A DNA stretch of 64,000 nucleotides from Candidatus Dojkabacteria bacterium HGW-Dojkabacteria-1. GTDB taxonomy: Bacteria; Patescibacteriota; Dojkabacteria; SC72. This document shows, piece by piece, positions 17,719 through 58,795 of this stretch. A model generated the notes under the pieces. The model worked only from the letters and a program-made list of their open reading frames with translations, searched no databases and was not told the DNA's origin. The stretch lies in contig PHAO01000001.1 of the NCBI GenBank assembly GCA_002840365.1, positions 85,101 through 149,100 on the forward strand. The letters run 5' to 3'. The position numbers and the translations under genes were made by a program. Numbering within the stretch: position 1 is the stretch's first letter; each line of letters starts with the position of its first letter.

Positions 17719-19014
17719 TTGAAGATGTTTGAAGAAATAAGGAAAGAGTTTCCAATAATTAGAGGTTCAAGATTTGGTAAAAAACTTGTATATCTTGATA
17801 GTGCTGCTACTACGCAAAAACCTGAGTTTGTAATAGATAGATTGAAGAAATATTACGAAACAGAGAATGCCAATATTCATAGAGGCCCATATGACCTTTC
17901 TTTGGAGGGTACAAAGCTTTGGGAATGGGCTCATGAAAAAGTAGCATCCTTTATCAATGCAGACTCATACAAAGAGATAATCTTTGTAAGAAATACCACA
18001 GAAGGTCTTAATCTTTTAGTAAATACAGTAGGAAGAAAGCTTCTTACAAAGGATGATATTGTAGTGGTTAGTGAAATGGAACATCACAGTAATATTGTTT
18101 CTTGGATGATATTACAGAAGGAAATACCATTTAAAATTGAATATATACCTATAAAAGAAGAGTATTCTTTGGATATAGATTGGTTCAAGAAATTAATAGA
18201 GAAAGAGGGAGAAAATATTAAGATTGTATCTTTGGTACATATATCAAATGTATTAGGGGTTAAAAATGATGTAGAGGAGATATTTAAAATAGCAAAGAAG
18301 AATAACTCCTTTACTATGCTTGATGCAGCTCAAAGTATTGTTCATTGTAAAGTAGATGTAAAAGAGATTGGGTGTGATGCACTTACATTCTCTGGTCATA
18401 AAGCATATGCACCTACAGGTACTGGAGCGGTATATTGTAAACAAAAATATTTAGAAGAACTAACTCCTTGGATGGGTGGAGGTGAGATGATTTCTTCTGT
18501 GTCTTTCAAAGATTTCGAATACAATGAACTACCTTGGAAATTCGAAGCAGGTACTCCTGATATTGGTGGTGGTATTGTTTTGGGATACGCGATAGAGTGG
18601 TTTGAAAAAGCATTGGAAAGTGTTGGAGGATGGGAGAGTTTAATAAAGCATGAGCAAGATTTAACGGAATTTTTCTTCAAACAGTTTGATGGAATAGGGT
18701 GGTTTAAACCTTTTGGTCCAAGAGATTCCTCTAGAAAATATGGTGCTATAGCTTTCCACATAGAAGGTTTTACATTTAGAGGATGTAAGAATATCTTCAA
18801 TATAGAAACCAATAGAGATGGATCAGGTATTAGTAATTTCCTAAATGAAAAGGGTATTGCCTTTAGAGAGGGCTATCACTGTGCAGAGCCTTTACATGAC
18901 AAATTGTGTGTAGGACCAAGTTTAAGATTTAGTCTTGCAATATATACCAACGAAGAGGATTTGAAGTATGCTGCTAATATGCTAAAGCAAGCAGTATTAC
19001 AAGGATTAAACTAG
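17719..19014 (+). CDS. Class V aminotransferase / cysteine desulfurase (SufS/CsdA-like)
   Basis: VYLDSAATTQKP…NIHRGPY…; PLP-lysine context FSGHKAY; C-terminal active-site HCAEP. Confidence 0.75.
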   Translation: MKMFEEIRKEFPIIRGSRFGKKLVYLDSAATTQKPEFVIDRLKKYYETENANIHRGPYDLSLEGTKLWEWAHEKVASFINADSYKEIIFVRNTTEGLNLLVNTVGRKLLTKDDIVVVSEMEHHSNIVSWMILQKEIPFKIEYIPIKEEYSLDIDWFKKLIEKEGENIKIVSLVHISNVLGVKNDVEEIFKIAKKNNSFTMLDAAQSIVHCKVDVKEIGCDALTFSGHKAYAPTGTGAVYCKQKYLEELTPWMGGGEMISSVSFKDFEYNELPWKFEAGTPDIGGGIVLGYAIEWFEKALESVGGWESLIKHEQDLTEFFFKQFDGIGWFKPFGPRDSSRKYGAIAFHIEGFTFRGCKNIFNIETNRDGSGISNFLNEKGIAFREGYHCAEPLHDKLCVGPSLRFSLAIYTNEEDLKYAANMLKQAVLQGLN

Positions 19015-19039: not shown

Positions 19040-20194
19040 ATGGATTTAACAAATGCCCCAAAAAATATTCCTTCTGATGATGTTGCTCAAAAAAGTATTC
19101 TAGCTGAAGTAGTAGAACTTCAAAACAAGCTAAGCAATTCAAATGCTCCTATTGAGTTAAAGGAAGATGCAATGAGAACTATAGAGAGGTTGGAAAGGAT
19201 GGCTAAGTGGGGTAACTACAGTTCTGAGTTTGAAAGTGTAGATAAGTATGTAGATTGGATTACAAGAATTCCTTGGGGTGCTCTCTCTGAGGACAATTTG
19301 GATATTAACAATGCAAAACAGTTAATGGATTCTACCCACTATGGTATGGATACCATTAAGAACCTTATCCTAGACTACCTTGCTGTAATGCAGTTGCAGA
19401 AAATGACAGGAAGAAACTCTTCAAATATAGAAAGTAACATGGCTAATCTTAGAGGTTCTTCTGCTAATGCTCCTGTGCTTCTTTTTCTTGGATTACAAGG
19501 TGTAGGTAAAACCTCTATTGCAAAATCCATTGCACAATCAATGGGTAGAAAGTTTGCAAGAGTATCTTTAGGTGCGATAGGGGATGTAAGAACCTTAAGA
19601 GGCACTCCGAGACATGAGATAGATGCAGAGCCAGGGCAAATAGTTAAGGCATTAATTAGGACTCAAAGTATGAATCCTGTTATCCTTATCGATGAAATCG
19701 AAAAAGCTAGTGGTAATGCAGGTTTACTTAATGACGTTATGGCAGCACTACTTGAAATTTTGGATCCAGAACAGAATGCTACTTTTGTTGATCACTATGT
19801 TGATCATCCTGTAGATCTTTCTCAGGTATTCTTCATTTGTACAGCTAATAATCTGGGAGGGTTATCTGCTGCTTTACTCGATAGGGTTGAGATAATTAGG
19901 TTTACAAGCTATTCAGATGAAGAAAAAGAGGTAATAGCTAAGCAGTATATTCTTCCGAAGGTGTTAAAGAATATGGGTTTAACTCAAGAGCATATACAGA
20001 TACAAGATAGTGTATGGCCATTACTTATTCGTCCAGTAGGTTTTGATGCCGGTATTAGGCAGCTAGAGAGAAATATTGCAACTTTAACTAGGAGCGCAGC
20101 AAGGCAAATAGTTGGAGGTCACCCTACACCAATATCGATTACACCCGAGAATGTAAAAGAATATGTACTTCCTGACCAAGGACCATTGAGTTAA
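19040..20194 (+). CDS. Lon-like AAA+ ATPase module without the S16 protease domain
   Basis: YVDWITRIPWG, GLQGVGKTSIAKSIA, NPVILIDEIEK, LLEILDPEQNATFVDHY and CTANN…LLDRVEIIRF align to the Lon ATPase core. The protein is 384 aa and ends about 50 residues after sensor 2. No protease frame follows. Confidence 0.7.
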   Translation: MDLTNAPKNIPSDDVAQKSILAEVVELQNKLSNSNAPIELKEDAMRTIERLERMAKWGNYSSEFESVDKYVDWITRIPWGALSEDNLDINNAKQLMDSTHYGMDTIKNLILDYLAVMQLQKMTGRNSSNIESNMANLRGSSANAPVLLFLGLQGVGKTSIAKSIAQSMGRKFARVSLGAIGDVRTLRGTPRHEIDAEPGQIVKALIRTQSMNPVILIDEIEKASGNAGLLNDVMAALLEILDPEQNATFVDHYVDHPVDLSQVFFICTANNLGGLSAALLDRVEIIRFTSYSDEEKEVIAKQYILPKVLKNMGLTQEHIQIQDSVWPLLIRPVGFDAGIRQLERNIATLTRSAARQIVGGHPTPISITPENVKEYVLPDQGPLS

Positions 20195-20415
20195 TATCCC
20201 TTAAATGGGTTTGTTAATTGAAGAGCTTTCATTACTCTTGAGAGATTAGGATTTCGTACTCCTCTAGATAGGTCTGTTCTAAGCTTGGTCTTGGTTTCTT
20301 GTTTTTCAAGAAGTTTCAAATCATTACCAAGCTTCTCTTGAGGAATCTGTTTAATATCAACAGCCTCAGTTACAAGATATTTTCTTATTTCATTGTTGTT
20401 ATTGGTTGTCGTCAT
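20191..20415 (-). CDS. Small hypothetical protein translationally coupled to the virB4-like gene
   Basis: 74-aa ORF whose ATG overlaps the virB4-like stop (20399..20415). No recognised domain. Confidence 0.3.
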   Translation of the reverse strand: MTTTNNNNEIRKYLVTEAVDIKQIPQEKLGNDLKLLEKQETKTKLRTDLSRGVRNPNLSRVMKALQLTNPFKGY

Positions 20416-22777
20416 TGTCTATGATTCCTTGTGGAGTTATATGACTCCTCCCTTTATTTAATTCTTCCCTTTGTTTTCTCACCTGTCCTGGGACAGTATT
20501 CTCTTCTATCATTTCTACGAAAGATTTTTGACTTTCATATTTCTTCGGATTCAACATCTCTTCCTGTTCCTTTAACCTTTTTTCTAACTCTTCCTGATAT
20601 TTTTCTCTTTCTGTCTTTATCTTTTCTATGTCTCCCTGTCTTCTTTCTACTGCTCTCTCAATCAATTCATTCTGTTTGTTAACATCTCCCGAGCTAGTCT
20701 TCATTGGCTGTTGTACTGTAGGAGGGTCATATATTTGTGCGAGCTCTGATATAGATCTTGTATCTGTCATTCCTTGTTGATTCTTCCTTGCTTCTAGTTC
20801 TCTTGGATCGGAAGTAATTAATTCATGTTCAGCTTGGCTTGAGAGTATTTGTATTCCTACATGGTTTGCACCTGCAAAGAATAGGCCTTGTCCTCTATCA
20901 CAGTTAAGGAGATAGTTTCTTTCTCCATCTGAGAGATTAAATACTTGTTGTAATTTCTCTACAGCTGAAGGACTCTGTTTCATAAGGACTTGAATTGAAG
21001 AGTTCGAGATTATTGCTCTACCCATATCATTGTTCATAAAGTCGGCAACATCCTGTGTAATTGTAGAAAGCCCAAGATAGTATTTCCTTGCTCTTTTTGC
21101 AAGAGAGTACATAAATTTAGCGGAATCTTCTCTCTGCATCATATACCAAGCTTCATCAACGATTAACAATCTTCTTCTTTGGTCTTTTCGTATCTTAGTC
21201 CATATGAAATCTAACATAAGGTACATTGCTAAAGGTTTGAGTTCTTCTTGTAAATCTCTAACACTGAATACAGTAAATGGATTATTTATTTCAAAGTTAC
21301 TTGCTTCATTGAATACTCCAGCACCACTTCCCATTATGTATTTTTCCATTCTTCTAGCTAAATCATGTGCTTCTGTTTCAGCCATACCTTTTAATACCTT
21401 ATACAAATCTTCAAGCAATGGAGCTTGTCTTTTTTGAGTTGCTGGATCGAATGTAATACCTTTCTCCCTATATGTTAATATTAATGCTCTATCAAGTATT
21501 GAGGTTTCTACATTGGTAAGCCCATCGAACATTACCTTAAAGAAACCTTGTAGTGCTAGAAGTTTCATTCTTAACTCATCATCTCCCTCTTCTGATACAC
21601 CTGAAAGATCAAATGGATTCATCTTGTGCCCTTTATCTTGAGAGAAGGATATGTATGAGCCGTTAACTGCCTTAGAAAGGTCTTCATATTCTCTTTCTGG
21701 ATCTATTATGATGATATGAGTACCAAGCATTAAGCTTCGAACGGCTTCTAATTTTACAAAATAGCTTTTACCAGCACCAGATTTTGCGAATATTACTGCA
21801 TTTGCATTCTCTAATTCAAACCTATCGAATATTACTAAGCTCTTGTTATGCATATTAATCCCGTACATGATTCCATGATCCATTGTTAATTCAGATGTAA
21901 CAAAGGGGAATGTAGTAGCAAGAGATGTTGTATCCATATTTCTAGTTATATACAACTTGTCTAGACCTAATGGTTGTGTACTAATAAAGGCTGGTTCCTG
22001 TTGTAGTGTTGCTGGCTTTGCGGTTACATTCATTGCTGCAAGAGTAGAGGTAACATTTCTAGAGTATTTTTCTAACAGCTCTTTGTTTGGTGCATATATT
22101 GTTACATACATTGCAAAGTGGAAGAATTTTTCTGTACCTTCTGCAATTGAGTCTTGAAGCTGTTGTGCATCTGAGAGTGCTACCTTTAATGAAGGGTCTA
22201 CGACTTTTCTGTCCTCCATTTGTGAATACAATGTAGCTTCCATTTCTCCGATTTTTTTCTTAAGTTTCTCTAATATAATCTTAGAATCTACAGGATAGTA
22301 GAAAGTACTAATTCTTAAAGAATGTTCGAAGTTGATAATGGGGGATAGCCAGTTTGGTCCTACGAATCTAGGATATCCACTGATAAAGAAAGTTCTTGAG
22401 TAGTAATTTCCCATTTGTAGAGTATTAAAATCAACCTCTACATCTATTGGTGCAATAATATCCTGTGTTGTTAAACCTGAGAATTTTCCAACCTGTGGTT
22501 CAAGGTTAACAGCTGCTGTTTGTGTACTTTTTCCTCCAACAGTAGATTTAAAATTGTCTAGCAGTTTAAAAAATGGATTCTTTTTGTTCTCTTTCTGTGT
22601 ATCATTGAACCTATCCTTTTGATCTATTTGTGTTTTCTGTTCTTTAACAGTATTTAGCTCCTTTCTTAAATCATTCTGGAAGGTAGCATATTTGTTCTGG
22701 TTAAATTGCTCCTGACGCTCGTTGAGCATCTTCATAGTCTTTGATTCTATATTGTTGTTTTGGCTATTGTTGTACAT
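20399..22777 (-). CDS. VirB4/TraC/CagE-family T4SS ATPase
   Basis: Walker A AKSGAGKSYFVK; Walker B LLIVDEAWYMM; VirB4-type N-terminal domain (…YYSRTFFISGYPRFV…). About 130-aa charged coiled-coil C-terminal extension. 792 aa. Confidence 0.85.
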   Translation of the reverse strand: MYNNSQNNNIESKTMKMLNERQEQFNQNKYATFQNDLRKELNTVKEQKTQIDQKDRFNDTQKENKKNPFFKLLDNFKSTVGGKSTQTAAVNLEPQVGKFSGLTTQDIIAPIDVEVDFNTLQMGNYYSRTFFISGYPRFVGPNWLSPIINFEHSLRISTFYYPVDSKIILEKLKKKIGEMEATLYSQMEDRKVVDPSLKVALSDAQQLQDSIAEGTEKFFHFAMYVTIYAPNKELLEKYSRNVTSTLAAMNVTAKPATLQQEPAFISTQPLGLDKLYITRNMDTTSLATTFPFVTSELTMDHGIMYGINMHNKSLVIFDRFELENANAVIFAKSGAGKSYFVKLEAVRSLMLGTHIIIIDPEREYEDLSKAVNGSYISFSQDKGHKMNPFDLSGVSEEGDDELRMKLLALQGFFKVMFDGLTNVETSILDRALILTYREKGITFDPATQKRQAPLLEDLYKVLKGMAETEAHDLARRMEKYIMGSGAGVFNEASNFEINNPFTVFSVRDLQEELKPLAMYLMLDFIWTKIRKDQRRRLLIVDEAWYMMQREDSAKFMYSLAKRARKYYLGLSTITQDVADFMNNDMGRAIISNSSIQVLMKQSPSAVEKLQQVFNLSDGERNYLLNCDRGQGLFFAGANHVGIQILSSQAEHELITSDPRELEARKNQQGMTDTRSISELAQIYDPPTVQQPMKTSSGDVNKQNELIERAVERRQGDIEKIKTEREKYQEELEKRLKEQEEMLNPKKYESQKSFVEMIEENTVPGQVRKQREELNKGRSHITPQGIIDNDDNQ

Positions 22778-23426
22778 TGTCTTCTCCTACTAATTCTTCA
22801 TCAGGGTTATATATTGTGTAGAATTCGGTAATTAACTCTTTGTTTGTCAGTTGATGTCCGAAGAGTCCCATTCGTCCTAACTGTTTTAAGATATGGTCTC
22901 TTTTTGGATACAAAAATATCTTTGCTTTCTCTAGTAATTGTTCCTGTCTCATTTGTAAAGCTTTCTCTATCTCTTCTCTTGTTTGTTTTGATTTAAATAT
23001 TCCCGAACCAGGTATATCTCCTGCAGGGTTAAAAGGTATTACTATTAAGAAAGTTTTGTCTAATACATCATTTTGTACAATTAAATTCTGTATGAATTCC
23101 GTATATATATTAAGCTGTCTTCTTAGTCCTTCTGACATACTTTCATTCTCTTGGTTTTTAAGGTAATCAACATAGTTTGATATATCAATTCTTTTTGTTC
23201 TGATTAATATCTGTATATGGAAATTCAAAGAATTAAGTAGACCTGCAAATGCATATATCTTACTATCCTGCTCATACTCTGCTAAGAGGTCAAAGTTAAT
23301 AGCAGATGTCTGAACTACCATTGCTACACTTCCACTTTTTGTTATTACCAAATCATCGACTATTTCCCTCACTTCGAGATGATCCTGTGTAGATGCTATT
23401 GTTCTTGCTCTTGCATTTGCTTCCAT
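22764..23426 (-). CDS. Soluble protein of the virB4 operon, function unknown
   Basis: 220 aa. Stop overlaps the virB4-like start by 14 nt. …DHLEVREIVDDLVITKSGSVAMVVQTSAINFDLLAEYEQ… loosely recalls the N-terminal segments of Gram-positive VirB4-like (TcpF/ConE) proteins. Confidence 0.4.
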   Translation of the reverse strand: MEANARARTIASTQDHLEVREIVDDLVITKSGSVAMVVQTSAINFDLLAEYEQDSKIYAFAGLLNSLNFHIQILIRTKRIDISNYVDYLKNQENESMSEGLRRQLNIYTEFIQNLIVQNDVLDKTFLIVIPFNPAGDIPGSGIFKSKQTREEIEKALQMRQEQLLEKAKIFLYPKRDHILKQLGRMGLFGHQLTNKELITEFYTIYNPDEELVGEDNVQQ

Positions 23427-24262
23427 TATTTCAATGCTATTTTCAAAGGTAATTTATTTTGATTTTTTGTAACTAATATTCGTAATTTTGGGGCACTAGA
23501 TGCTAGACCTTCAAACTCAATGATATATATCCCTTCAGGATATATCCTATTACTTAAGAAGTAACCATTTGGACCTGTCTTGTTAGCATAGAGGATTTTA
23601 CCATTAGAGTCCTTTAAGTAGGTATTAACATTTGAAAGAGGTTGATTATCTTTTGTACATAACCATATATTTATATTCCCAGGTAATTTATCAATACTTT
23701 TTATAGGGAATTGATATTTAGAAATATTCTCCTCGGAAATGGTTATATATTCATCATCTGGAAGAAGAATTTTCTCTTCTTGTTGAACAACATCTTTGGT
23801 TACTTCTTTTGTTTCTTCTCCCTCTATGGCTAATATGTCATCTCCAGGGTTTTCTTCGAATATTTGAGACTTCTGTTCCTCTCTTAGCTCTGTAGTACCA
23901 ATTACCTTCCTTTTTGTATCATCAATAGCTGTAACAGTAGGCTTTATTCTCTGTTCTTTGAGCGTTTGGTTAAGCCATACTCTTTGAGTAGGCCTATTAA
24001 TTGCTGTAAAGTAATTAATTATCGCCTTGTCTGCAGGTTGATCATTTATTGGAACGAGAGCTAGAAAAGCTCCTATTCCAGAAAGTATTGCAAAAAGAGG
24101 TATCCCAATTATTCCTGGTATGTCTCCTCCAATTGAGAGGTAAAGGAAAATACCTCCTGTACCTACACCTAGTGCAAGGTATGCAAACTCCTTTAGAGTA
24201 AATCTTGTAAAGAGTTTAAACTCAACATCTAATACATTTTGTGGAATAGGGTGTTGTCTCAT
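23426..24262 (-). CDS. Bitopic/di-topic membrane protein, possible VirB3-like component fused to an extracytoplasmic beta-rich domain
   Basis: Two adjacent N-terminal TM helices (…LALGVGTGGIFLYLSIGGDIPGIIGIPLFAILSGIGAFLALVP…) followed by about 200 aa of hydrophilic sequence. First gene of the virB4-containing operon. Confidence 0.35.
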   Translation of the reverse strand: MRQHPIPQNVLDVEFKLFTRFTLKEFAYLALGVGTGGIFLYLSIGGDIPGIIGIPLFAILSGIGAFLALVPINDQPADKAIINYFTAINRPTQRVWLNQTLKEQRIKPTVTAIDDTKRKVIGTTELREEQKSQIFEENPGDDILAIEGEETKEVTKDVVQQEEKILLPDDEYITISEENISKYQFPIKSIDKLPGNINIWLCTKDNQPLSNVNTYLKDSNGKILYANKTGPNGYFLSNRIYPEGIYIIEFEGLASSAPKLRILVTKNQNKLPLKIALK

Positions 24263-46170: not shown

Positions 46171-46247
46171 CCTCTCTCTCTTGATATAACTTCTAAGAAT
46201 TAAAAGGTGAAAAACCTTGTATTTTGATAATTTTAAAATTTTTATTT

Positions 46248-48371
46248 ATGCTTTTTAATCATAAAAAACACGAGTTTGAGATAGGAGGAAGAAAGTGTTC
46301 CTTTGAAACAGGAAAATTAGCACTTAGATCCGAATCTGCAATATTAGCAAGAATGGGTGATACTGTTGTAGAAGTTAATGTTAACACAGCACCCGCGAAG
46401 GGAGAATTAGATTACTTTCCTCTTTCAGTTGAATATATTGAGAGATTCTATGCATCAGGAAAGATTAGTGGTTCAAGATTTGTAAAAATAGAAAGATTTC
46501 CAAGTGATGATGCTGTTCTTAAGGCAAGGATGATAGATAGGGCTATACGTTCTAGATTTCCTGAAGATTACAGAAATGAAGTAAGTCTTGTTGTAACAGT
46601 AATGTCATACGATGAAGAAAACGATCCTGTACTTTTAGCGATAAATGCTGCTTCTGTAGCATTACTTAACTCAAGTGCACCATTTGATGGACCTGTTGCT
46701 GGAGTAAGGATGGGAATAGTTGATGGGAAAATACAACCTCTTTACAAGAGTTTAGAAGATGTAGATGAAGAGAATCAAATGAACTATGTATTAGGTGGGG
46801 ATGGAAAGGTATTTACCATGATTGATGCAGGCTGTTATGAAATCCCTGAAGAAAAGGTTTTAGAAGCTATGGAATCAAGTCTTTCTGAAATGAAAGTATG
46901 GGTGGAGAATCAAAGTAAGTTTGTAGATATGCTTGAGAAGAAAGAGAAAGAGTATACTCCTTTTGTAATAGATGAGACTCTCTTAAATGATCTTTCGGAT
47001 TTTCTTGGTGAGAAGGTATTAGAAAATCTCTTAGCAGCAGATAAAGCAAAGCATGAAAGCACAAAAGAAGAGGCTAACAAACACTTTGAAGGAAAACACT
47101 CAAAGGCGAACATAGCAGAAGCATATGACAAACTACAAAAGAAAGCTTTGAGAAAATATGTAAAAGAAAACAAAAAGAGAGTAGATGGAAGAGATTTGGA
47201 TGAAATAAGGGAGATGGCAGCAGAAGTAGATTTACTTCCTAGGGTACATGGATCTGGACTTTTCACAAGAGGAGTAACACAGGTTCTTTCAATTGCAACA
47301 CTGGGTAGTCTTAAGGATGCAAAGTTGGTAGATGATATGCTTGGAGAGAAAGAAAAGAGATATATGCACTACTACAATGATTTACCATTTGCATACGGTG
47401 AAGCAGAAAGAGTAAGACTTAATCCAAGTAGAAGAGCAGTAGGTCATGGAATGTTAGCAGAAAAAGCGTTGATACCTGTAATTCCTTCTGAATCAGAATT
47501 CCCTTATACAATTTTAGTAATGTCTGAGATTCAAGGAGAAAACGGTTCTAGCTCTATGGCATCGGCATGTGGATCGTCTCTTGCACTAATGGCAGCGGGT
47601 GTTCCAATCAAAAAGATTGTTGGTGGAATAGCATGTGGCTTAGTAACAGATGAAGATGGCTCTTTCCATGTATTAACTGATATGCAAGGAGTAGAAGATT
47701 TCTATGGAGATATGGACTTCAAGGTAACTGGTACAAGAGATGGAATTACTGCAGTACAAATGGATAACAAAATGTCAGGAATAACAATGGAAATTGTTAA
47801 AGAAACATTCGCAAAATCTAAGGTAGCAAGAGAGAAAGTTATCTCTGTAATAGAGGAAGCTATACCATCAGCAAGAGGTGAAATCTCTGAATATGCTCCT
47901 AAGGTTGCAGTGGAAAAGATTCCTGTAGACAAAATTGGTGAATTAATAGGACCAGGAGGAAAAAATATTAGAGAACTTACAGAAAGAACTGGAGCAGAGA
48001 TATCCGTAGAAGAGGATGGAACTGTAAATATATATTCTTCAGATAAAGAATCTATTGAGAGTGCAGTTAAATATATTAAGGGATTGAGCTTTGTTCCTGT
48101 TGTAGGTGAATCATATGAAGGTAAAGTAGTATCCATTATGGAATATGGTGCATTCGTAGATATTGCTCCTGGAGTATCTGGATTGGTACATGTATCTGAA
48201 ATAACAGATGAGTTTGTAAAAGATGTAAACCAGTTCCTTAAGGTAGGTGATGTTGTAAAGATAAAGATTTTGGAGAAAGATAAAATGGGGAGATTGAAAT
48301 TCAGTATTAAACAAGCAAAAGGTGATACTGAAGCAATCGCAACTGGACAAAGATTAGTAGATCCTGATTAA
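46248..48371 (+). CDS. pnp: Polynucleotide phosphorylase
   Basis: Two RNase PH domains, KH (…IGELIGPGGKNI…) and S1; likely ATG at 46248 (MLFNHKKHEFEIGGR…). Confidence 0.93.
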   Translation: MLFNHKKHEFEIGGRKCSFETGKLALRSESAILARMGDTVVEVNVNTAPAKGELDYFPLSVEYIERFYASGKISGSRFVKIERFPSDDAVLKARMIDRAIRSRFPEDYRNEVSLVVTVMSYDEENDPVLLAINAASVALLNSSAPFDGPVAGVRMGIVDGKIQPLYKSLEDVDEENQMNYVLGGDGKVFTMIDAGCYEIPEEKVLEAMESSLSEMKVWVENQSKFVDMLEKKEKEYTPFVIDETLLNDLSDFLGEKVLENLLAADKAKHESTKEEANKHFEGKHSKANIAEAYDKLQKKALRKYVKENKKRVDGRDLDEIREMAAEVDLLPRVHGSGLFTRGVTQVLSIATLGSLKDAKLVDDMLGEKEKRYMHYYNDLPFAYGEAERVRLNPSRRAVGHGMLAEKALIPVIPSESEFPYTILVMSEIQGENGSSSMASACGSSLALMAAGVPIKKIVGGIACGLVTDEDGSFHVLTDMQGVEDFYGDMDFKVTGTRDGITAVQMDNKMSGITMEIVKETFAKSKVAREKVISVIEEAIPSARGEISEYAPKVAVEKIPVDKIGELIGPGGKNIRELTERTGAEISVEEDGTVNIYSSDKESIESAVKYIKGLSFVPVVGESYEGKVVSIMEYGAFVDIAPGVSGLVHVSEITDEFVKDVNQFLKVGDVVKIKILEKDKMGRLKFSIKQAKGDTEAIATGQRLVDPD

Positions 48372-48374
48372 GGA

Positions 48375-49403
48375 TTACTCCTTAACAATCTTAGCAATAT
48401 AAAAGCCCATCATCTCTGGAGATGGAAGTATACGTATACTCTTTCTAACTGAAGGGTCATATGTATTTCCACTCCAGTGTGTTATGCCAGGTAATACTAG
48501 ATGTTTAAACTTTTTGAATCCTTCACTATTTACTAATTCGATATCAGCAACTCTTGCATTCTTGTGTTTATCAAGTAGATGAGTAACAACTCCCTCATTC
48601 TCTTCTGGTTCTAATGTACAAGTTGAGTAAACTAGAGTACCTCCAGTTTTCAATGTTTTAAATGCTGAATCGATTAATTCTTTCTGCAAAGTACTTGAAC
48701 CTTTTACCTTCTTTATACTCCAGAATCTCAAGGGTTTCATTCCTCTCATGTAAATCATCCCTTCACCACTACATGGAGCATCCAATAGCACCCTATCAAA
48801 GTAATCTGGATATTTCTTACCAAATTCTCTGCCATCACTAAGGGTTACTTTTACACTACTTGCACCGAATTGCTCTATTACATTTCTTAAAGAATTTGTT
48901 CTATTAATCTCTAATTCATTTGCAAGAATGTTGCCTCTATTCTTTACAATGTCTGCAATATGAGTAGTCTTACTACCAGGGGCAGCACACATATCCAATA
49001 TACTTTCATTAGGTTTTGGGTCTAAGACCAGAGTATCCAAAATACTAGAGAGGTTTTGGATATAAAAGAAACCCTCCCTATATTCATCTGTTTGAGAAAC
49101 TTCTGCCTTATCTTTATTGTTTACAAAATATGTATTAGGAGCCCAAGCTATTTCTTCTAATTCATAACCTTTTTTCTTAAGACTTTGATATGTCTTATCT
49201 ACACTTCCCTTTAAAGAATTCAATCTTATTGTAGTCCTTGTTCTTTGGCTGAATAGTGGTGTAACCTCTTTTTTAGGAATTCGCAAAATACTTGCAATCC
49301 TAGAAATAAAAATATCATCTTTAGTATAGAACTTTTCGGCATTATTCTCCTTAAAAGGAGCTCTCTTTCTCTTAAAGTTACTTCTTAATTTCTTACCTCT
49401 CAT
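48375..49403 (-). CDS. NOL1/NOP2/Sun-family rRNA m5C methyltransferase (RsmB/RsmF-like)
   Basis: ILDMCAAPGSKTTHIA SAM motif; DAPCSGEG; catalytic TCT…EENE region. Confidence 0.8.
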   Translation of the reverse strand: MRGKKLRSNFKRKRAPFKENNAEKFYTKDDIFISRIASILRIPKKEVTPLFSQRTRTTIRLNSLKGSVDKTYQSLKKKGYELEEIAWAPNTYFVNNKDKAEVSQTDEYREGFFYIQNLSSILDTLVLDPKPNESILDMCAAPGSKTTHIADIVKNRGNILANELEINRTNSLRNVIEQFGASSVKVTLSDGREFGKKYPDYFDRVLLDAPCSGEGMIYMRGMKPLRFWSIKKVKGSSTLQKELIDSAFKTLKTGGTLVYSTCTLEPEENEGVVTHLLDKHKNARVADIELVNSEGFKKFKHLVLPGITHWSGNTYDPSVRKSIRILPSPEMMGFYIAKIVKE

Positions 49404-50607: not shown

Positions 50608-52224
50608 ATGTATTTAACCCCGTATCAAAAAAGACAAATAAAAATTGTAGCTGCTTTAGTAATTGGTATTCCATTAACGATTTTTGCTGTGTACCAAGGG
50701 GTTCGATACCTTTCACGTGCTGGTGCAGAGGCAGTACCTAAAGATGTTGTAGTTACAAATCTAACAACAAATTCTCTAACAGTAACATGGTTTACAGATA
50801 CACCTGCTGATGGATATGTTGTACCTGTATTAAATGGAGTAGAACAAAGTCCTGTTAGAGATAAAAGGGGAGGGGGTAACAGAACATCTCACTATGTTGA
50901 ACTGCGTAGTTTAGAACCTAATACAAAATATTCCTTTGTAATTGTTTCTGGAGGTACAAAGTATACAAACAGTGGTGGTAATAACTATGAATTTACAACG
51001 GCTCCAGTTGGGGCAGATACCCCTATTCCCAATCCAATTCATGGCTCTGTAACAGGAATATCTAATGATGATGTGATAATATATGTTTTCCCTAAAAACA
51101 ATAGTGCATATCCAGTATCAACCACTATTCCAAGTGGTGGAAACTGGATCGTAGATCTTTCTTCCTTTAGAAAAATAAGTGACAAGAGTATGTTAAGAAT
51201 TACTGATGATACAGAACTTGTTCTTCTTGCAAAAAATACCACTGGTAAAGGAGCGCTTTTAGAAGGGGCATATTCATCACTTTTTGATAGTAATGGGAAA
51301 TTAAATCAAACACTATCCTTAAGAATAGAGGATATTTCTGATTTAATATCTTTCTTTCCAAATGAATCTAAAATGGGAGCAACGCAAGCAAGTACTCCTA
51401 CGCCTTCTCCTTCTCCAACGCCTACACCCACTCCTACTCCAACACCTGAACCAGATGATGAGGATATAGATATTGATACCAATTATCAAATTGTGCATGA
51501 TTTGAGATGGATAGATATGGTTACTGGTGATGCACAAGCTTCTTTAGATTCAGGAGAGTCTACTATCTTGATTACAAATCTTACAGATGTAGGTTTTACA
51601 GTAATTTGGAGATCTCCACAAAAAGTAGAGGGATATATTAAATATGGTACTAGTAAAACTGCTCTTACAGAGGAATCATGGGATGTAAGAGATGGTCTCT
51701 CATCTAGAAACACTTACTATGCTCATGCGGTTGATACAGCAAGACTAGATCCAAATACAACATACTACTTTGAAGTCTATTCAGGAGAAACTAAATACAA
51801 CAATTCAGGAAATATGTACTCTGTTACAACATTCTCTACCCTTGGTTCTCCACCACCATTTGAAACTAAATCTGGATCTATATCTAATGCAACGAATCCA
51901 GGAGATTGGATATTGGTAGGTAAGATTGTTGATGACGATGATGCAGGAACATCTGGTTCATCAAGATATCTTTCAACAGTTCCTGATGACAATGGGAATT
52001 GGATATTAACTTTGGGAGACGCAAGAAGTGAAGATGGTTCTTCATATTTCTCCTTCTCTAACTCAGATATTTTAAGCATATATTTGCTTGGAGATAGTAA
52101 GAAACTTTTTGACAACAAAATTTCTCTTTCAGAGATACCAATAGACGCATCTTTGGTTGGAGGTGGGGTCTCTGTAAGTAAGGTTAAATTGCTTTCTGAC
52201 TATGGAATCGTTAATATAAAGTAG
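50608..52224 (+). CDS. Secreted protein with two FN3/PAP-N-like modules and a (TP)n linker
   Basis: N-terminal TM. Modules …LTVTWFTDT…TKYSFVIVSGGTKY… and …FTVIWRSPQ…TTYYFEVYSGETKY… TPTPSPSPTPTPTPTPTPEP linker. Confidence 0.5.
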   Translation: MYLTPYQKRQIKIVAALVIGIPLTIFAVYQGVRYLSRAGAEAVPKDVVVTNLTTNSLTVTWFTDTPADGYVVPVLNGVEQSPVRDKRGGGNRTSHYVELRSLEPNTKYSFVIVSGGTKYTNSGGNNYEFTTAPVGADTPIPNPIHGSVTGISNDDVIIYVFPKNNSAYPVSTTIPSGGNWIVDLSSFRKISDKSMLRITDDTELVLLAKNTTGKGALLEGAYSSLFDSNGKLNQTLSLRIEDISDLISFFPNESKMGATQASTPTPSPSPTPTPTPTPTPEPDDEDIDIDTNYQIVHDLRWIDMVTGDAQASLDSGESTILITNLTDVGFTVIWRSPQKVEGYIKYGTSKTALTEESWDVRDGLSSRNTYYAHAVDTARLDPNTTYYFEVYSGETKYNNSGNMYSVTTFSTLGSPPPFETKSGSISNATNPGDWILVGKIVDDDDAGTSGSSRYLSTVPDDNGNWILTLGDARSEDGSSYFSFSNSDILSIYLLGDSKKLFDNKISLSEIPIDASLVGGGVSVSKVKLLSDYGIVNIK

Positions 52225-52273: not shown

Positions 52274-53605
52274 ATGAGAATGTATCTAGACAAATTAAAA
52301 CCAATATTTTTACTCTTTGTAATGACAGTTTCGTCATTAGGTATAGTTTTTGTCGTAAATCAATTTAAGGATACTTCTAAGTATGTAAAACCTGTTGAGG
52401 GGGCTTTGGAAGTTAAGATTGTCGAGAACAGTACAGCATTAGTAAATAACAGTGATACCACTATTCCACAGAAAGTATCAGAGGATAATCAGGGAATAGT
52501 TTTGAGTACAGAGGCAACAAATTCATGTGCACAAGCGATTATTAAAATACAGTCATATTCTGTATGTTCTAGATCTGGTACAGCAGAAGAGGATTACAAA
52601 ACAGGAAATAGGTCGGGTAATACTGTGAGTAAAAATTCCACAGTAAAGCTTATTGAAGTTACTATACCTTTAGAACTTTTTGCAGGTTCTGATGTAAAAG
52701 ATTCTAATCGTAAACTAACTGATACTACGCCTATTAATCTCTCTGCAGGTAATATGTTTGATGATAAAATTGCAAACGGTCAATTACCTCCTGGGGTTCA
52801 AATCTCTGAATATAAGCCTTCTGTAAAAAATAGGCCTTTTTCTATGCCATATTCTACTGCTTTTGAACAAAAAGCAAACATTAATAGTGAAGAGGGAGAG
52901 GTTGTTCAGGATAAAAAATTGGGAGGATATAAATGTGAACATTGTAAAAATGAATCAAATGTTACTCCTCATAGAACGAATCAGTTGAGTACTTTCATGG
53001 TAGATATCTTGTATAGGACGCCTGGTGAAAAGAATCAGGTAAAAGCTGAAGATGCAATTGAATCATGTTCTGATAAAGATGATTTTATTGAATGGAATAA
53101 CAATAATAGGAAATCATGTGCATTAAGCACAGTTACTGTAGCAGTAGAATTAATAAAATCCATACCAGAATCTATTTGGAGTGAATGTAAAGGAGGGGTT
53201 AAATATGATCAAAATGGAAACCCTATCCCTCCTAGTGAAGATTGTATTTTTCCTGAAGACATAATAATAAAAATGACCTCTGGGTTTGGTTCTGATAGGG
53301 AGTGTCCTGATGGAGTTTGTACTAATAAGTATATGAATACAAGAAATAATGTTGCACTAGCTCCTATAGATGCTAATAAGACAAATAAGCAATATTTTAC
53401 GACTGCATGTAAGGTAATCATTGAAGGTAAGGTATATACTGTAAAGTGTGCTTGGGATATGTCTCATCTTTATAAAGAAAGGAAATTTTCTGAGTACGAT
53501 GATTTGCCAGGTGTAGAGAGTACACCTACAAAAGACCAATATACTAGATATCTGTTAGAAGAAGGAGATCGTAGAAAAGATGCTCCTGAGATAAAAATCT
53601 TTTAG
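52274..53605 (+). CDS. Cys-rich secreted hypothetical protein
   Basis: N-terminal TM/signal; at least 14 Cys in the ectodomain; no known domain. Confidence 0.45.
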   Translation: MRMYLDKLKPIFLLFVMTVSSLGIVFVVNQFKDTSKYVKPVEGALEVKIVENSTALVNNSDTTIPQKVSEDNQGIVLSTEATNSCAQAIIKIQSYSVCSRSGTAEEDYKTGNRSGNTVSKNSTVKLIEVTIPLELFAGSDVKDSNRKLTDTTPINLSAGNMFDDKIANGQLPPGVQISEYKPSVKNRPFSMPYSTAFEQKANINSEEGEVVQDKKLGGYKCEHCKNESNVTPHRTNQLSTFMVDILYRTPGEKNQVKAEDAIESCSDKDDFIEWNNNNRKSCALSTVTVAVELIKSIPESIWSECKGGVKYDQNGNPIPPSEDCIFPEDIIIKMTSGFGSDRECPDGVCTNKYMNTRNNVALAPIDANKTNKQYFTTACKVIIEGKVYTVKCAWDMSHLYKERKFSEYDDLPGVESTPTKDQYTRYLLEEGDRRKDAPEIKIF

Positions 53606-53627
53606 ATTAATTTTTTAATAAACAAAA

Positions 53628-55109
53628 ATGAGTATTACGCTCCAAGTATATGAAAAGATTTTGATATTGAAGGAATTTGTTACTAGAAAAACATTCCAAA
53701 ATGCATTTCTAGGATTTCTTTCTTTGCTTCTTTTCTTCGGTGTAATGAATGTATATGCACAAGAAGATGCAAAAATATCTCCCGATTGGGGTGGTACAAA
53801 AGAGTTTCATAATGAGATAAGTGGAACGAATAGAGACGAGGATAATATGAATAGTAGGCAAGGTTTAGAAGTACTCAATACGAGCTGGACAGTATTATCC
53901 TTAATGGCTCCAGAGGTAACTGAAAATGGTGAACAAGCTATGAGTAATCCTAATGTTCCATATGATTTAAGAAGGGGAGCTTTAGGTATGTTAGAAGATG
54001 CAGGGAATCTTGTAGTGGCCTCATATCCCGTTGTAGATATCCCACAACATTTAGCACAAGAATGGGTTCCTGGATACAGAGAGAATGTTACAGGTTTGTA
54101 TGCCCAGAACTCTTCTGCAGGACATAATTCTGGATATCAAGAATTAATGAGTAGTGGAATAGTTAGCCTTTGGAATAGAACTCTAAATCTTTCATATGTA
54201 GCTTTTGTTTTAATAATGATTGTTGCAGGATTTATGATTATGTTCAGACATAAGCTAGGAGGTCAAACTATGGTTACCATAGGTAATGTTCTTCCTGGTG
54301 TAATTACGGCATTAATATTAGCAACCTTTAGTTTTGCAATTGCAGGTTTAATCATTGATTTAGGTGGAGTTGCTACAGGTCTTGTAGCCTTCATTCTAGG
54401 AGATGGAGCTGAAATAAAATCAATCTCTTCCCTCGGAGGATTAATGGCTACAGTTCTTAGTGGTGGAGTCGGTATGGCAACAGTTATTAGTGCAGTTGGA
54501 GGAGGTTTGTTGCTAGGAGGTGCCGCTATCGGTGCTGGTGGACTTGCTGCTATTGCATCTGGTCCTGTTGGATGGTTGATTCTTGGTGCCGTTGGAGCAA
54601 TTGGAATTATATTTGCAATTATAATCATTGGAATAATCTTTGTAGGAGCTCTTAAAGTCATTATCGCTTTGTACAAAGCATATTTCTCTTTACTTTTAGC
54701 AGTGATACTTGGACCAATACAAATAACCTTGGGTGCAATGCCAGGTAATAGTCATATGATTAATAACTGGTTCTTAACGGTATTAAGGAATGTATTGGTA
54801 TTTCCTGTAGTACTATTCATTGTTAATATCCCAAATGCCCTTATGAACTCTGGAAGTGATGTCTTCCTTAGATTCCCAGGGAAATTAGTTTATGAAGACC
54901 CTGCAACATATGATGCATGGGATTTAAATGCTGCAAGTGGAATTTTCATATTCATCCTTAAAATCTTTGTACTCTACTTCGCAGCTCAAGCACCTAAGTT
55001 CCTTGAATCTTGGTTCCCACCAAATACACCTAAGGCAATAGGAGAGGGTATTGGGGCGGCTCAAGCAAGTCTTTCAAAGATTCCTTTGGTAGGTGGATTC
55101 TTTAAGTAA
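53628..55109 (+). CDS. VirB6/TrbL-like polytopic T4SS membrane protein
   Basis: Signal sequence and an approximately 140-aa exported segment, then a Gly-rich multi-TM core (…VGGGLLLGGAAIGAGGLAAIASGPVGWLILGAVGAIGIIFAIIIIG…) typical of the TrbL/VirB6 family. Confidence 0.5.
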   Translation: MSITLQVYEKILILKEFVTRKTFQNAFLGFLSLLLFFGVMNVYAQEDAKISPDWGGTKEFHNEISGTNRDEDNMNSRQGLEVLNTSWTVLSLMAPEVTENGEQAMSNPNVPYDLRRGALGMLEDAGNLVVASYPVVDIPQHLAQEWVPGYRENVTGLYAQNSSAGHNSGYQELMSSGIVSLWNRTLNLSYVAFVLIMIVAGFMIMFRHKLGGQTMVTIGNVLPGVITALILATFSFAIAGLIIDLGGVATGLVAFILGDGAEIKSISSLGGLMATVLSGGVGMATVISAVGGGLLLGGAAIGAGGLAAIASGPVGWLILGAVGAIGIIFAIIIIGIIFVGALKVIIALYKAYFSLLLAVILGPIQITLGAMPGNSHMINNWFLTVLRNVLVFPVVLFIVNIPNALMNSGSDVFLRFPGKLVYEDPATYDAWDLNAASGIFIFILKIFVLYFAAQAPKFLESWFPPNTPKAIGEGIGAAQASLSKIPLVGGFFK

Positions 55110-55127
55110 TAGTTAAGTACTTGATAT

Positions 55128-57776
55128 ATGGCAAAGAAACCTAAATCAGACAATTTTGATGCTTTAGGTAGTGTCTATGATTTCCTTTTCACTGAAGCAA
55201 AGAAGAAACCAGAGAAAAGAAGACCTATAAAGCCAACTGAGGTTTCAGGTACCAGTATGATGACCGATGCTGTTTTTGCGGCATTGGAAAAACCTGGTGC
55301 CTTTATTTCAAACACCATTGTAGATGAATTTAACGGGGCTCTAGATTTGGAGCTTGGTGTTGTTCAATTTGATACCACTGGAAAGTTTAAAATTACATCG
55401 AATTCTTTAGTAGAAATTTTAAAAGATCCTCAAAAGGCGGTCGAGAAGTCAATTGCAAAAAACCAAGCAATTAGGAAATCCATGCGAGCTACATATCTCC
55501 GAGAATTTATGAAGGACTTTGTTGCCACAGGATGGGCTAGAAAATATGGAGATATTGAAGCACAAAAAGCAGTGTATGGTTCCAGTATTGCATCAAGACA
55601 AAGACTTCTCTCTGAAGAAAGCTATGCAGTCGCAAAGGCAATTGGTCAATACTCAGGAGGTAATATAGACATGGGTTCATATGGGAAGATGAGCTCTGCA
55701 GAAAATGAATTCCTTCACAAAAGATCTCTAGAACTTGTTCGTAGAAAGATGATTCCTCAAGATAAGTGGGATTCTCTCTCTGAGCAAGAAAAAGCATCCT
55801 TTAGAGAAGCATTCCTTAGAGAAAATTCTTGGAAGAAATTTAAGGATACTGATGTTCCAGATACTTCATTACAACAATTTCTAAATGCAAGATTTGGTAC
55901 CGAAGGAGCTGGTATGTACCAGAGATATATAGATACTACAGACAAAGACGTAGCAAAAAGAAACATCGCTGATCCTAAGAAATATCTACAGCTTGAAACC
56001 GCATATCTTGATGAAAATATCAAAAGCTTAGAAAACATTACAAACCGTAATGAACAACAACAAAGAAATTTAGATGTATATAGAAAGACAAAATATCTTT
56101 TAGACAAAGGAAAGGGAGAGGCAAAATTACGTACGGAGTTAGAAAGAATTAGAACTGACCTTCGAAGTGTAACGGATCCTACTCAGAAAAGATTGCTAGA
56201 AAGAGAGTTAAAGGACACGAGAACAGCACTCAGATATATTTCCGGAGATAACTTGATGGGTAGGATAGGCAAATGGGAGGGGTATGTTAATAGCTGGAAT
56301 ATGATTTATGGTCCAAAGGGTTCTCAGCTATTTCAAAGTGTATTAACAGGGGATTTTTTTGATGCAAAGAAAAATACTATATTTTGTCCGACGAAAGTTA
56401 GTGAAATTGATAACAGGGGTGGAAAAATCGAAATAATGGTTGGAGCAACATCTCCTAGGGGTCTTATTAATGCATATAATCAGATGGGAACTCAACTCTA
56501 CTATATGACCCCAAGATCTGTATTCAGAACTCTTTTCTATAATGGTGAGGGTTTTACATACCTACTCTTTAAGAAGTTAGAAAAAGAGCAAGATCTTCTT
56601 AAAACTCTTGCGACAGGCTTAGGAGAGAAAGATTTCAAAACAGAAAACCTACTAGGGTTACTTATTAATAAAGACATGAATACTTTCCTTACAGATAATG
56701 CTTCAAAGTTTAGCCCTGAAGACTTGGAAAAGATAAAGAAATTTTTTGAATCAAACAAAAACTTTTCATCTGTAATAAAAGTATTTAGTACAGGAAGTAG
56801 AATACAGCAAATAATACAATCAAGAGTTAATGCTATTACTGCACCAATAAGAAGAAAGATTGCAGAAAAATTCCTAATGAAATTTGTATCAAAATATGGA
56901 GGAGCTGAGCTATTGAACCAGTGGATTATGAAAGGTGGTATTAATGTAATGGTTAGATCTTTAGCAACAGGAATCGCGGGAGCTCTTGGATTAGTTGCTA
57001 CTCCACTTGGGAGTGCAATAATAACGGCAATCACATGGGTTTTAACAGATTTAGCAATGAAGGCATTTGCTCAAATGCTAATAGTTGGAAAATATATACT
57101 GTTTGGTTTAATTGGAATTGTTTTCCTAGTAATATTCTGGGCAAGTGGTTCAGTAAAAAGTTTCAATAAAAACAATTTCTCCTACTACAATGAAACCCCT
57201 GGCTCAATAATCCAGTGTTCATTGTACGAAGAAAGAGACCTTGGTACAGGTGATGAAGCTCCTTGGGGAGATACAATAATACCTCCTCCATCTGGAGAAA
57301 GCTGTGTATTTGGAGCAGGATCATTCTGGTGTTCACAGGGGTATAAAGATACAAAAGGTTGGAGTCACCAAAATATTAACCATTTAATGCCAGTAGACTT
57401 AACAAGTGTAGGATATATATATGCTCCACAATTTTGTAGTACTGGAAATTGTAGTATAACGAGAATAGCAGTAATTAACTGTAGAGATGGATCTAATGCA
57501 GGAGGAATAGTTGAATTAACTGCAAGTAATGGTTCTACTACATACCTATTCAAACTTCTACATGTCAAACCACTTGCAGGATTAGGAGAGAAACTTAGTG
57601 GTGGTCAACCAGTTGCTGTTGTACAAGATAGGCCAGAGGTCGAAAGAGGATGGTGTTGGACAGGTAAACACTTACACTTAGAGACAAGACAAAATGGTGC
57701 AACTGTAGATCCACTAAAACTCCTTCAAAGTTTTAGCTGTAATGTACCAGATGAGTCTAGCTGTGCAAGACCATAA
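55128..57776 (+). CDS. Large bipartite protein with a cytoplasmic coiled-coil N-terminal region, a TM hairpin, and a C-terminal Cys-rich M23 metallopeptidase domain
   Basis: M23/LytM motifs NHLMPVD…VGYIYAP…LLHVKP…SGGQPVAVV…TGKHLHLET…TVDP. Hydrophobic segment at about aa 600-670. 882 aa. Confidence 0.6.
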   Translation: MAKKPKSDNFDALGSVYDFLFTEAKKKPEKRRPIKPTEVSGTSMMTDAVFAALEKPGAFISNTIVDEFNGALDLELGVVQFDTTGKFKITSNSLVEILKDPQKAVEKSIAKNQAIRKSMRATYLREFMKDFVATGWARKYGDIEAQKAVYGSSIASRQRLLSEESYAVAKAIGQYSGGNIDMGSYGKMSSAENEFLHKRSLELVRRKMIPQDKWDSLSEQEKASFREAFLRENSWKKFKDTDVPDTSLQQFLNARFGTEGAGMYQRYIDTTDKDVAKRNIADPKKYLQLETAYLDENIKSLENITNRNEQQQRNLDVYRKTKYLLDKGKGEAKLRTELERIRTDLRSVTDPTQKRLLERELKDTRTALRYISGDNLMGRIGKWEGYVNSWNMIYGPKGSQLFQSVLTGDFFDAKKNTIFCPTKVSEIDNRGGKIEIMVGATSPRGLINAYNQMGTQLYYMTPRSVFRTLFYNGEGFTYLLFKKLEKEQDLLKTLATGLGEKDFKTENLLGLLINKDMNTFLTDNASKFSPEDLEKIKKFFESNKNFSSVIKVFSTGSRIQQIIQSRVNAITAPIRRKIAEKFLMKFVSKYGGAELLNQWIMKGGINVMVRSLATGIAGALGLVATPLGSAIITAITWVLTDLAMKAFAQMLIVGKYILFGLIGIVFLVIFWASGSVKSFNKNNFSYYNETPGSIIQCSLYEERDLGTGDEAPWGDTIIPPPSGESCVFGAGSFWCSQGYKDTKGWSHQNINHLMPVDLTSVGYIYAPQFCSTGNCSITRIAVINCRDGSNAGGIVELTASNGSTTYLFKLLHVKPLAGLGEKLSGGQPVAVVQDRPEVERGWCWTGKHLHLETRQNGATVDPLKLLQSFSCNVPDESSCARP

Positions 57777-57799
57777 AGATAAGTTATTAAAATGCCCAA

Positions 57800-58771: not shown

Positions 58772-58795
58772 TAACCATTGTGATACAATATTGAA

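Follow-up and report, generated by a model that had tools for sequence, protein, structure and literature searches.

The window analysed here, 64,000 nucleotides of contig PHAO01000001.1 of Candidatus Dojkabacteria bacterium HGW-Dojkabacteria-1, carries at 19040..20194 on the + strand a complete gene with ATG as the start codon. Its 384-amino-acid (aa) product was identified, from the list of open reading frames (ORFs), Pfam and NCBIfam TIGR00763, as an AAA+ ATPase derived from the LonA proteases and is referred to below as Lon-AAA. The protein behaved as a LonA-type ATPase module in all the tests of that module and failed those that define a Lon protease. It is thus a natural and strongly conserved motor-only Lon, of which no account was found in the literature searched (Lon in Dojkabacteria, Patescibacteria, the candidate phyla radiation (CPR) or Saccharibacteria, and protease-less Lon), and whose many database sequences have names that are generic or misleading. 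As its most likely role we propose that of a functional stand-alone hexameric ATPase that remodels proteins and leaves them undegraded, and we give this roughly an even chance.

All the domain matches of the protein fell within the ATPase part of Lon. In Pfam it matched AAA (PF00004, residues 147-289, E 6.5e-20) and Lon_lid (PF22667, residues 310-361), and neither the LON_substr_bdg/LAN domain (PF02190) nor Lon_C (PF05362) was found at E≤1. The NCBIfam model TIGR00763 ('lon') was matched with an E value of 1.2e-100, only at its positions 256-567 of 795, positions 1-255 and 568-795 having no match in the protein; the score of 338.3 bits was under the equivalog cutoff of 608.05, and that obtained with PRK10787 was 231.7 vs 891. 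The protein consequently corresponds to the central third of LonA only, that is, the three-helix bundle, the AAA+ domain and the lid. The closest solved structures were also those of LonA (B. subtilis 3m6a, E 1.7e-74; human LONP1; M. taiwanensis; E. coli Lon), all of them aligned solely through their ATPase part, and the alignment to 3m6a began at chain residue 8 of the 240-774 construct. No match to the LonB or LonC models of NCBIfam and Pfam was obtained. PADLOC gave no BrxL match and only weak generic AAA matches, and on this outcome membership in a defence system was rejected. The initial annotation of this DNA had described the gene as a Lon-type AAA+ module without LAN and S16 domains, and Pfam, TIGR00763 and the structure matches agree on this point; the comparison with LonA, LonB, LonC and BrxL that it had proposed places the protein in the LonA type. 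Each of the Lon ATPase motifs that it had listed was readable in the translation of 19040..20194, which contains YVDWITRIPW, GLQGVGKTS, NPVILIDEIEK, LEILDPEQNATFVDHY, CTANN and LLDRVEII, together with RGTPRHE (vs RGHRRTY). The end of the protein, placed there about 50 aa past sensor 2, lies 44 residues after the sensor-2 Arg340.

An AlphaFold2 model built from a 53-sequence alignment (pLDDT 85.9, pTM 0.80) was poorly defined at the extreme termini and in loop 123-146 only. Foldseek placed it on LonA ATPase modules with TM scores of 0.74-0.80, and the E. coli Lon 235-584 fragment (6n2i) spanned the model almost exactly, with a target-normalised TM of 0.88. This fragment forms an ADP-bound open hexameric ring of helical packing in the crystal without the protease domain (PMC6722904). 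Because its domain set is the same as that of Lon-AAA, ring formation by the latter, and its assembly as a hexamer, are plausible. Both differ in their origin, since 6N2I is a limited-proteolysis fragment of a protease, whereas Lon-AAA is the full product of a natural gene under selection, and its pore loop is remodelled.

The residues of the motor were assigned according to the roles defined for Y. pestis Lon (PMC7239648). The N-terminal helical region (19076..19405, aa 13-122, all the coordinates of this paragraph being on the + strand) is the equivalent of the LonA three-helix bundle (NTD3H, the C-terminal part of HI(CC)) plus linker helices, and was modelled as helices 13-32, 38-57, 61-76, 89-99 and 104-122 with pLDDT around 90. 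It is followed by a variable loop (19406..19477, aa 123-146, pLDDT 51-65), the length of which varies among homologues, and by the AAA core. The latter has a Walker A motif, GLQGVGKTS (19490..19516, aa 151-159, equivalent to Lon 356-364); a Walker B motif with D218/E219 in VILIDEIEK (19691..19696, Lon D423/E424); a sensor-1 segment, TANN (19841..19852), with Asn270 equivalent to Lon N473; and an arginine finger, Arg282 (Lon R484), in LLDR (19874..19885). The AAA+ lid or alpha domain is of Lon type and was delimited at 19916..20164 (aa 293-375) from Pfam Lon_lid and the AlphaFold2 helices; it includes the sensor-2 Arg340 (Lon R542) in GIRQLER, at nt 20057-20059. The elements that connect the ATPase with the helical bundle were also identified. 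The pre-sensor-1 beta-hairpin region, LDPEQNATFVDHYVD (19760..19804, aa 241-255), has invariant columns in the 53-sequence alignment and contains Glu244 (Lon E447, the inter-subunit bridge), Tyr253 (Y456) and Asp255 (E458). The contact of Lon Y456 with Y294/W297, from hairpin to bundle, is thereby kept as Y253 with the conserved Y70 and W73, and that of R396 with E458, from pore loop to hairpin, as R191 with D255. The protein finishes in a C-terminal tail, VLPDQGPLS (20165..20191, aa 376-384). In the 19 Dojkabacteria homologues compared (68-87% identity) the Walker A and B, sensor-1, arginine finger and sensor-2 residues as well as this tail were invariant; the Lon catalytic and allosteric residues were also invariant in the 53-sequence family-wide alignment, while the tail is invariant in core Dojkabacteria and not in the wider family. 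With regard to Walker A, comparison of 150 representatives gave G[LIV]xGxGKT as the signature of the CPR family, vs GPPGVGKTS in canonical Lon.

Pore loop 1 was located by pairwise alignment to LonA at 19595..19636 (+), as LRGTPRHEIDAEPG (aa 186-199). The segment GHRRTYIGAMPG of Lon is GTPRHEIDAEPG in this protein, so that the alteration of RGHRRTY to RGTPRHE which had been indicated in the initial annotation is real and affects pore loop 1 itself. Tyr398, with which Lon grips its substrate, is replaced by Glu193, Gly400 by Asp195 and Met402 by Glu197, while Ile194 and Arg191 correspond to Ile399 and Arg396; the aromatic-hydrophobic pore pair Tyr398-Ile399 of LonA is therefore Glu193-Ile194 here. 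In a census of 355 non-redundant family sequences, the Met402 position was Glu in 355/355, the Gly400 position was Asp or Glu in all but one, and the Arg396 position was Arg or Lys in 353. The Tyr398 position varied by lineage. Dojkabacteria have E or S there (94 and 22 of 129 sequences, respectively), Microgenomates have H, R, F or Y, and the Saccharibacteria and WWE3 types have F or Y. This variation across lineages suggests that the ancestral state was probably aromatic and that the paddle was lost repeatedly.

The family to which Lon-AAA belongs is wide. The best 120 database clusters showed 69-100% identity with it, their lengths being 332-444 aa, and none of them had a Lon_C domain. A HMMER scan of 1.84 billion representatives recovered short relatives containing only the Lon-type AAA part (~350-670 aa, 40-54% identity), and a profile made from them yielded hundreds more proteins of 342-483 aa, those with a named source being from Microgenomates (Shapiro-, Gottesman- and Roizmanbacteria) and Saccharimonadales. 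More than 350 non-redundant homologues of about 340-480 aa and of the same architecture were thus collected from Dojkabacteria, Microgenomates, WWE3 and Saccharibacteria, and the term "orphan" with which the gene had been initially described has to be abandoned. No extra domains were found in the longer members of the family, in which LAN is also absent. A DNA pattern of the family (GKT, 27 codons, and then [LI]xGxx[RK]xxx[DE]xEPG, the pore-loop signature being [LI]RGxx[RK]xxx[DE]xEPG) had one match in the window, with 0 expected by chance. Its scan over one genome per GTDB species gave at least 120 loci, which were used as 8-kb segments and are a sample of the distribution and not a census. 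Among the matches listed there were Levy-, Shapiro-, Roizman-, Ames-, Davies-, Gottesman-, Woese-, Curtiss- and Collierbacteria, WWE3, Dojkabacteria, Saccharibacteria and unclassified Patescibacteria, and no Parcubacteria-labelled genome except for one 'Nomurabacteria' record with a Dojkabacteria-type sequence. All of the 120 listed ORFs scored as members of the family, and the C-terminus of each one is at most 46 residues past the sensor-2 Arg. Finally, the sequences with the signature grouped in one clade when 192 Lon-type AAA modules were placed in a neighbour-joining tree. As judged from these sequences, the CPR would possess a large, monophyletic family of uniformly protease-less Lon-AAA proteins.

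The absence of the expected domains is the sole point in favour of the gene being a decaying or artefactual remnant of lon, originated by frameshift, truncation or pseudogenization. The 384-aa protein, which is identical to CVU76_00515 ("hypothetical protein", Candidatus Dojkabacteria bacterium HGW-Dojkabacteria-1), was found on several independent assemblies, including contigs of 547 kb and 734 kb, and the truncation is therefore not a sequencing frameshift. The three + frames of 20150-20600 contained just short, stop-riddled stretches and no Lon_C remnant downstream of 20194; the three-frame translation that had been proposed as a check consequently revealed no Lon_C in another frame. Nor is the gene a mis-called full-length Lon, a case contemplated in the initial annotation, because LAN and S16 matches are lacking and a convergent ORF is present at its stop. 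In addition, hundreds of homologues of equal length keep the catalytic residues invariant, and the conservation of Lon-AAA is on par with that of housekeeping genes: its identity between Dojkabacteria genomes is 71-73%, that of serine hydroxymethyltransferase 73%, that of LepA 74-75% and that of GroEL 79%, the last being the only one among the neighbours compared that is more conserved. Lon-AAA is therefore a housekeeping-like gene under strong purifying selection, and artefact, frameshift, mis-call or pseudogene were ruled out on the basis of the independent assemblies, the downstream frames and the conserved homologues; the probability that we concede to a remnant is practically negligible.

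The genomic location of the gene differs between lineages. In Saccharimonadales and in two Microgenomates contigs the order is nusA-infB-rpsO-pnp-[gene]-(udg)-rnj-ftsK, on one strand throughout. Among the loci listed with enough flank, those of Microgenomates type had RNase J downstream in 43/51 and PNPase upstream in 33/52, and both genes were present in 6/6 of WWE3 type; the median gap between Lon-AAA and pnp was 34 nt, and that between Lon-AAA and rnj 24 nt. This location was taken as a context feature of most members and not as a sequence criterion of the family. The order pnp-[gene]-rnj was likewise found in L033, a deep Dojkabacteria-like member. In our window this location was not found, pnp (46224..48371, +) being about 26 kb apart from Lon-AAA and followed by a convergent gene for an RsmB/F-type methyltransferase (48375..49403, -). 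This arrangement documents the break-up in Dojkabacteria of the ancestral pnp-[Lon-AAA]-rnj array.

The same-strand slot between pnp and (udg)-rnj-ftsK outside core Dojkabacteria, within the nusA-infB-rpsO-pnp array and with such short gaps, is what recommends a different function, namely that of a factor of RNA metabolism working with the products of the surrounding genes for RNA turnover and translation. Its targets might be PNPase/RNase J assemblies, ribosomal or RNA-binding proteins, ribonucleoproteins or, as in the case of RuvB, the nucleic acid directly. It is consistent with such a role that many Microgenomates members have Arg or His in place of Tyr398, next to the conserved Arg/Lys396, and that Lon ATPase modules have been reported as nucleic-acid binders, 6n2i having been deposited as 'DNA-binding ATP-dependent protease La'. 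Nevertheless, the pnp ... rnj ... ftsK order is an old arrangement in Gram-positive-type genomes, so the position may reflect inheritance rather than function. Besides, the gene left the operon in Dojkabacteria and Roizmanbacteria with undiminished conservation, and S. epibionticum has pnp and rnj without Lon-AAA. The invariant acidic residues of the pore, with the Glu of Dojkabacteria at the paddle position, are unfavourable for gripping RNA or DNA, and because the pore loop is acidic a direct action on nucleic acid is disfavoured. We regard a role in RNA metabolism as possible but rather unlikely, and it overlaps with the remodelling of proteins if the clients are RNA-binding proteins.

A third type of context was found in ten Roizmanbacteria-type loci (L010, L027, L039, L043, L052, L066, L071, L081, L098 and L117), in which Lon-AAA is head-to-head with groES at a spacing of about 25-133 nt and the pore loop is LRGQSKTSPE[AS]EPG. 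In this subgroup both genes may share a regulatory region, and we counted the placement in favour of a protein remodeller.

In the window, Lon-AAA is tail-to-tail with a compact, four-gene type IV secretion system (T4SS)-like cluster on the - strand (20191..24262), formed by genes for a PrgI/VirB3-like protein (23426..24262), a TraC-like protein (22764..23426), a VirB4/TraC-type ATPase (20399..22777) and, as the last one, a convergent 74-aa ORF (20191..20415) that overlaps the Lon-AAA stop codon by 4 nt and is neighbouring context, not part of the ATPase. This conserved ORF ends in ...NPFKGY and had no match in a Pfam scan. The cluster fits the CPR-specific T4SS described in bioRxiv 10.1101/2025.01.22.634366. 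Two more Dojkabacteria contigs (71-73% identity) showed the same downstream arrangement, and Lon-AAA abuts the cluster in 9/10 of the listed core-Dojkabacteria loci with enough flank. Such an adjacency had led to the suggestion of a link with the secretion ATPase operon, in which the ATPase would serve the VirB4/TraC-like/PrgI-like cluster by, for example, unfolding secretion substrates, and the abutment together with the stop codon overlapping the last gene of the cluster speaks for it. The convergent orientation, however, precludes co-transcription, and the adjacency is restricted to core Dojkabacteria: L033 and all the other lineages have the pnp-rnj context, VirB4 systems across the CPR have other neighbours, and a T4SS survey of 3,035 CPR genomes mentions no Lon or AAA protein among the genes recurrent near virB4. 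The juxtaposition is accordingly a lineage-specific convergent one, resulting from relocation in core Dojkabacteria, and the suggested secretion partnership is not supported; we hold a role as secretion accessory to be very improbable.

Another alternative is that Lon-AAA is the ATPase half of a split protease, docking on a separately encoded S16/Lon_C, ClpP, HslV-like or other peptidase. HslU and the proteasomal ATPases dock through their C-terminal tails, and a conserved tail could be the docking element here as well: VLPDQGPLS is invariant in Dojkabacteria, and most Microgenomates members conserve an end in ...LP[TS]W. But the members from lineages other than Dojkabacteria terminate in ...FLPTW, ...FTSEV or ...YYLPK, and these lineage-specific C-termini (DQGPLS, LPTW, FTSEV, YYLPK) do not provide a family-wide docking motif. 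The search for a partner in the window and in the listed loci was also negative. The window encodes no Lon_C, LAN or other ATP-dependent protease, no peptidase was found among the immediate neighbours of Lon-AAA in the 120 listed loci, and tblastn of four Lon_C domains and one LAN-containing N-terminus against those 8-kb loci gave no match. Moreover, in the complete Saccharibacteria genome of S. epibionticum ML1 the PF05362 domain was found in YifB/ComM only, from which it follows that some CPR at least are without any S16 protease, although this genome also has no evident member of the Lon-AAA family and carries an unrelated hypothetical gene in the pnp-rnj slot. The Tn-seq essentiality tables for this species (Southlakia epibionticum) consequently do not bear on Lon-AAA. 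The loss of the aromatic paddle likewise argues against the supply of substrates to a degradation chamber. We consider a split protease unlikely.

Many LonA-like proteins in databases have two or three complete tandem AAA+ modules, each with its three-helix bundle and lid, followed by one Lon_C. Those found are among P0123-P0143, P0272 and P0273, such as P0123 (1113 aa, Candidatus Dependentiae MFC1854773.1, 3 x AAA) and P0125 (997 aa, 2 x AAA), and to our knowledge multi-ring Lon proteases have not been described. A "Rosetta stone" link of the family to a protease through these proteins was rejected, as their modules are of the canonical GPPGVGKT type and none has the CPR signature; the sole tandem-AAA Lon with a named organism is that of Dependentiae, and the tandem proteins are unrelated to the CPR family.

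Returning to the remodelling of proteins without degradation, the way in which Lon-AAA would work can be proposed as follows. From a LonA ancestor, the LAN substrate-recognition domain and the S16 peptidase would have been lost and the three-helix bundle, the alpha/beta domain and the lid kept. The subunits would form a Lon-like hexameric ring, either spiral or closed, in which ATP would be bound and hydrolysed through the Walker A/B, sensor-1, arginine finger and sensor-2 residues, and the nucleotide state would be relayed by the conserved pre-sensor-1 hairpin. The cycle of the ring would then remodel, unfold or pull apart clients, leaving them undegraded, in a chaperone- or segregase-like manner. 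We infer that these clients are proteins and that the action is independent of any protease; proteolytically inactive Lon/Pim1 keeps a chaperone-like activity. The pore of such a ring would present the conserved acidic Asp195/Glu197 and the basic Arg191 and, having Glu193, no aromatic paddle. With a pore of this kind, the grip on the client is probably weaker or electrostatic, and not the processive Tyr-mediated threading of Lon. That the acidic pore loop favours basic clients is a speculation.

Several observations weigh against this proposal. An aromatic pore-loop residue powers translocation in Lon and in nearly all AAA+ unfoldases, and both the Glu at the Tyr398 position and the E/S/H/R/F/Y spread of the family are unexpected for a threading motor. 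A position at which E, R and F are all accepted is improbable as the essential contact with the substrate, and this tolerance is the main ground for doubting a classical processive unfoldase. Furthermore, PNPase and RNase J, as conserved partners in the operon, are indicative of RNA metabolism and not of general proteostasis, and a search for the CIRCE heat-shock operator with up to 3 mismatches in the window and in 127 loci gave one irrelevant site and none near the gene. Lastly, as the window represents about 9% of the genome, a peptidase on which the ATPase could dock may be encoded elsewhere. The unfoldase or chaperone-like ATPase suggested in the initial annotation is sustained as a protease-less ATPase module, while its interpretation as a simple classical unfoldase is weakened by the change of Tyr398 to Glu. 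A more specific version, in which Lon would have become, in a major branch of the CPR, a stand-alone ATPase that, without aromatic-paddle threading, remodels basic proteins associated with RNA degradation or ribosomes by means of its acidic pore, its ancestral location in the pnp-rnj operon reflecting this dedicated role, is put forward tentatively and is on balance improbable.

Comparison with known systems delimits what is particular to Lon-AAA. With LonA (endopeptidase La, MEROPS S16; E. coli and Y. pestis Lon, B. subtilis LonA, human LONP1) it shares about 36-46% identity over the whole 384 aa, the fold, and the Walker A/B, sensor, arginine finger, E447 bridge, hairpin Tyr and NTD3H Tyr/Trp residues; it differs in the lack of LAN, of the long coiled-coil part of HI(CC) and of the S16 Ser-Lys peptidase domain, in GLQGVGKTS instead of GPPGVGKTS, and in having Glu for Tyr398 and Asp/Glu for Gly400 and Met402. 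LonB, LonC (Lon-like-Ms) and BrxL are, as Lon-AAA, relatives of Lon with one activity modified, but all three keep Lon_C: LonB has in addition a membrane anchor, LonC a degenerate ATPase, and BrxL is a component of the BREX defence. Lon-AAA, with its ATPase intact and its protease gone, shows the opposite combination to LonC and has no relationship with BrxL. ClpX without ClpP, the D2 ring of ClpB/Hsp104 and RuvB are rings of the HCLR clade that remodel macromolecules without proteolysis and provide a precedent for Lon-AAA. ClpX, ClpB and RuvB are, however, not orthologous to it, and the three-helix bundle and lid of Lon are absent from all of them; ClpX and ClpB retain aromatic pore loops and RuvB acts on DNA.

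Upstream of Lon-AAA, the window contains, in this order, folD, glyA, a 531-aa thyX, dcd and a class-V aminotransferase or cysteine-desulfurase-like gene (17719..19014, +), which finishes 25 nt before the Lon-AAA start codon. Lon-AAA probably shares a transcript with folD-glyA-thyX-dcd in the window. The upstream neighbour is not conserved, an unannotated minus-strand gene lying in between in L003 and L004. A scan for promoters and terminators around the gene gave nothing exceeding the shuffled expectation. ThyX (Thy1, PF02511; 15534..17129, +) is about double the usual length, as are its counterparts in other Dojkabacteria (531 aa in L003 and 520 aa in L004), and may have arisen by duplication or fusion. 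The window also encodes DnaK, GroEL, DnaJ, nusA, infB and pnp. At 52274..59983 (+) there are five consecutive ORFs (443, 493, 882, 323 and 395 aa) without Pfam match at E≤1e-4, preceded by a protein with fn3 and purple-acid-phosphatase N-domains (50608..52224); the block may be specific to the lineage or related to the cell surface. An Rfam scan of the whole 64 kb at gathering thresholds found no tRNA, rRNA, riboswitch or other RNA family.

In databases, the members of the family are named 'ATP-dependent Lon protease' by JGI/IMG (P0020, P0028, P0277, P0283 and others) and 'AAA family ATPase' by NCBI PGAP. True members were also found in records titled 'uncultured Gammaproteobacteria / Pseudomonadales', 'Candidatus Methanoperedens' and 'Nanoarchaeia' (among them L009, L011, L013, L014, L016 and L070, and many others), several of them contigs of 570-835 kb. 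These metagenome-assembled genomes with a CPR Lon-AAA are apparently Patescibacteria that were mislabelled or mis-binned.

Lon is defined as a single chain with ATPase and protease, and a motor-only version departs from this definition. If Lon-AAA acts alone, it would constitute a natural experiment on the action of a Lon ATPase ring that lacks both proteolysis and the pore-loop tyrosine. Should the more specific proposal concerning basic RNA-associated clients be true, it would represent a functional class not known so far among the machines derived from Lon, and perhaps the sole Lon-type protein of these organisms. The operon link with PNPase and RNase J offers a concrete functional hypothesis. 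Finally, reconstructions of CPR proteostasis would change, because the 'Lon protease' names credit these bacteria with a protease that is possibly absent, and metabolic reconstructions of CPR genomes based on orthology will probably report Lon protease too often.

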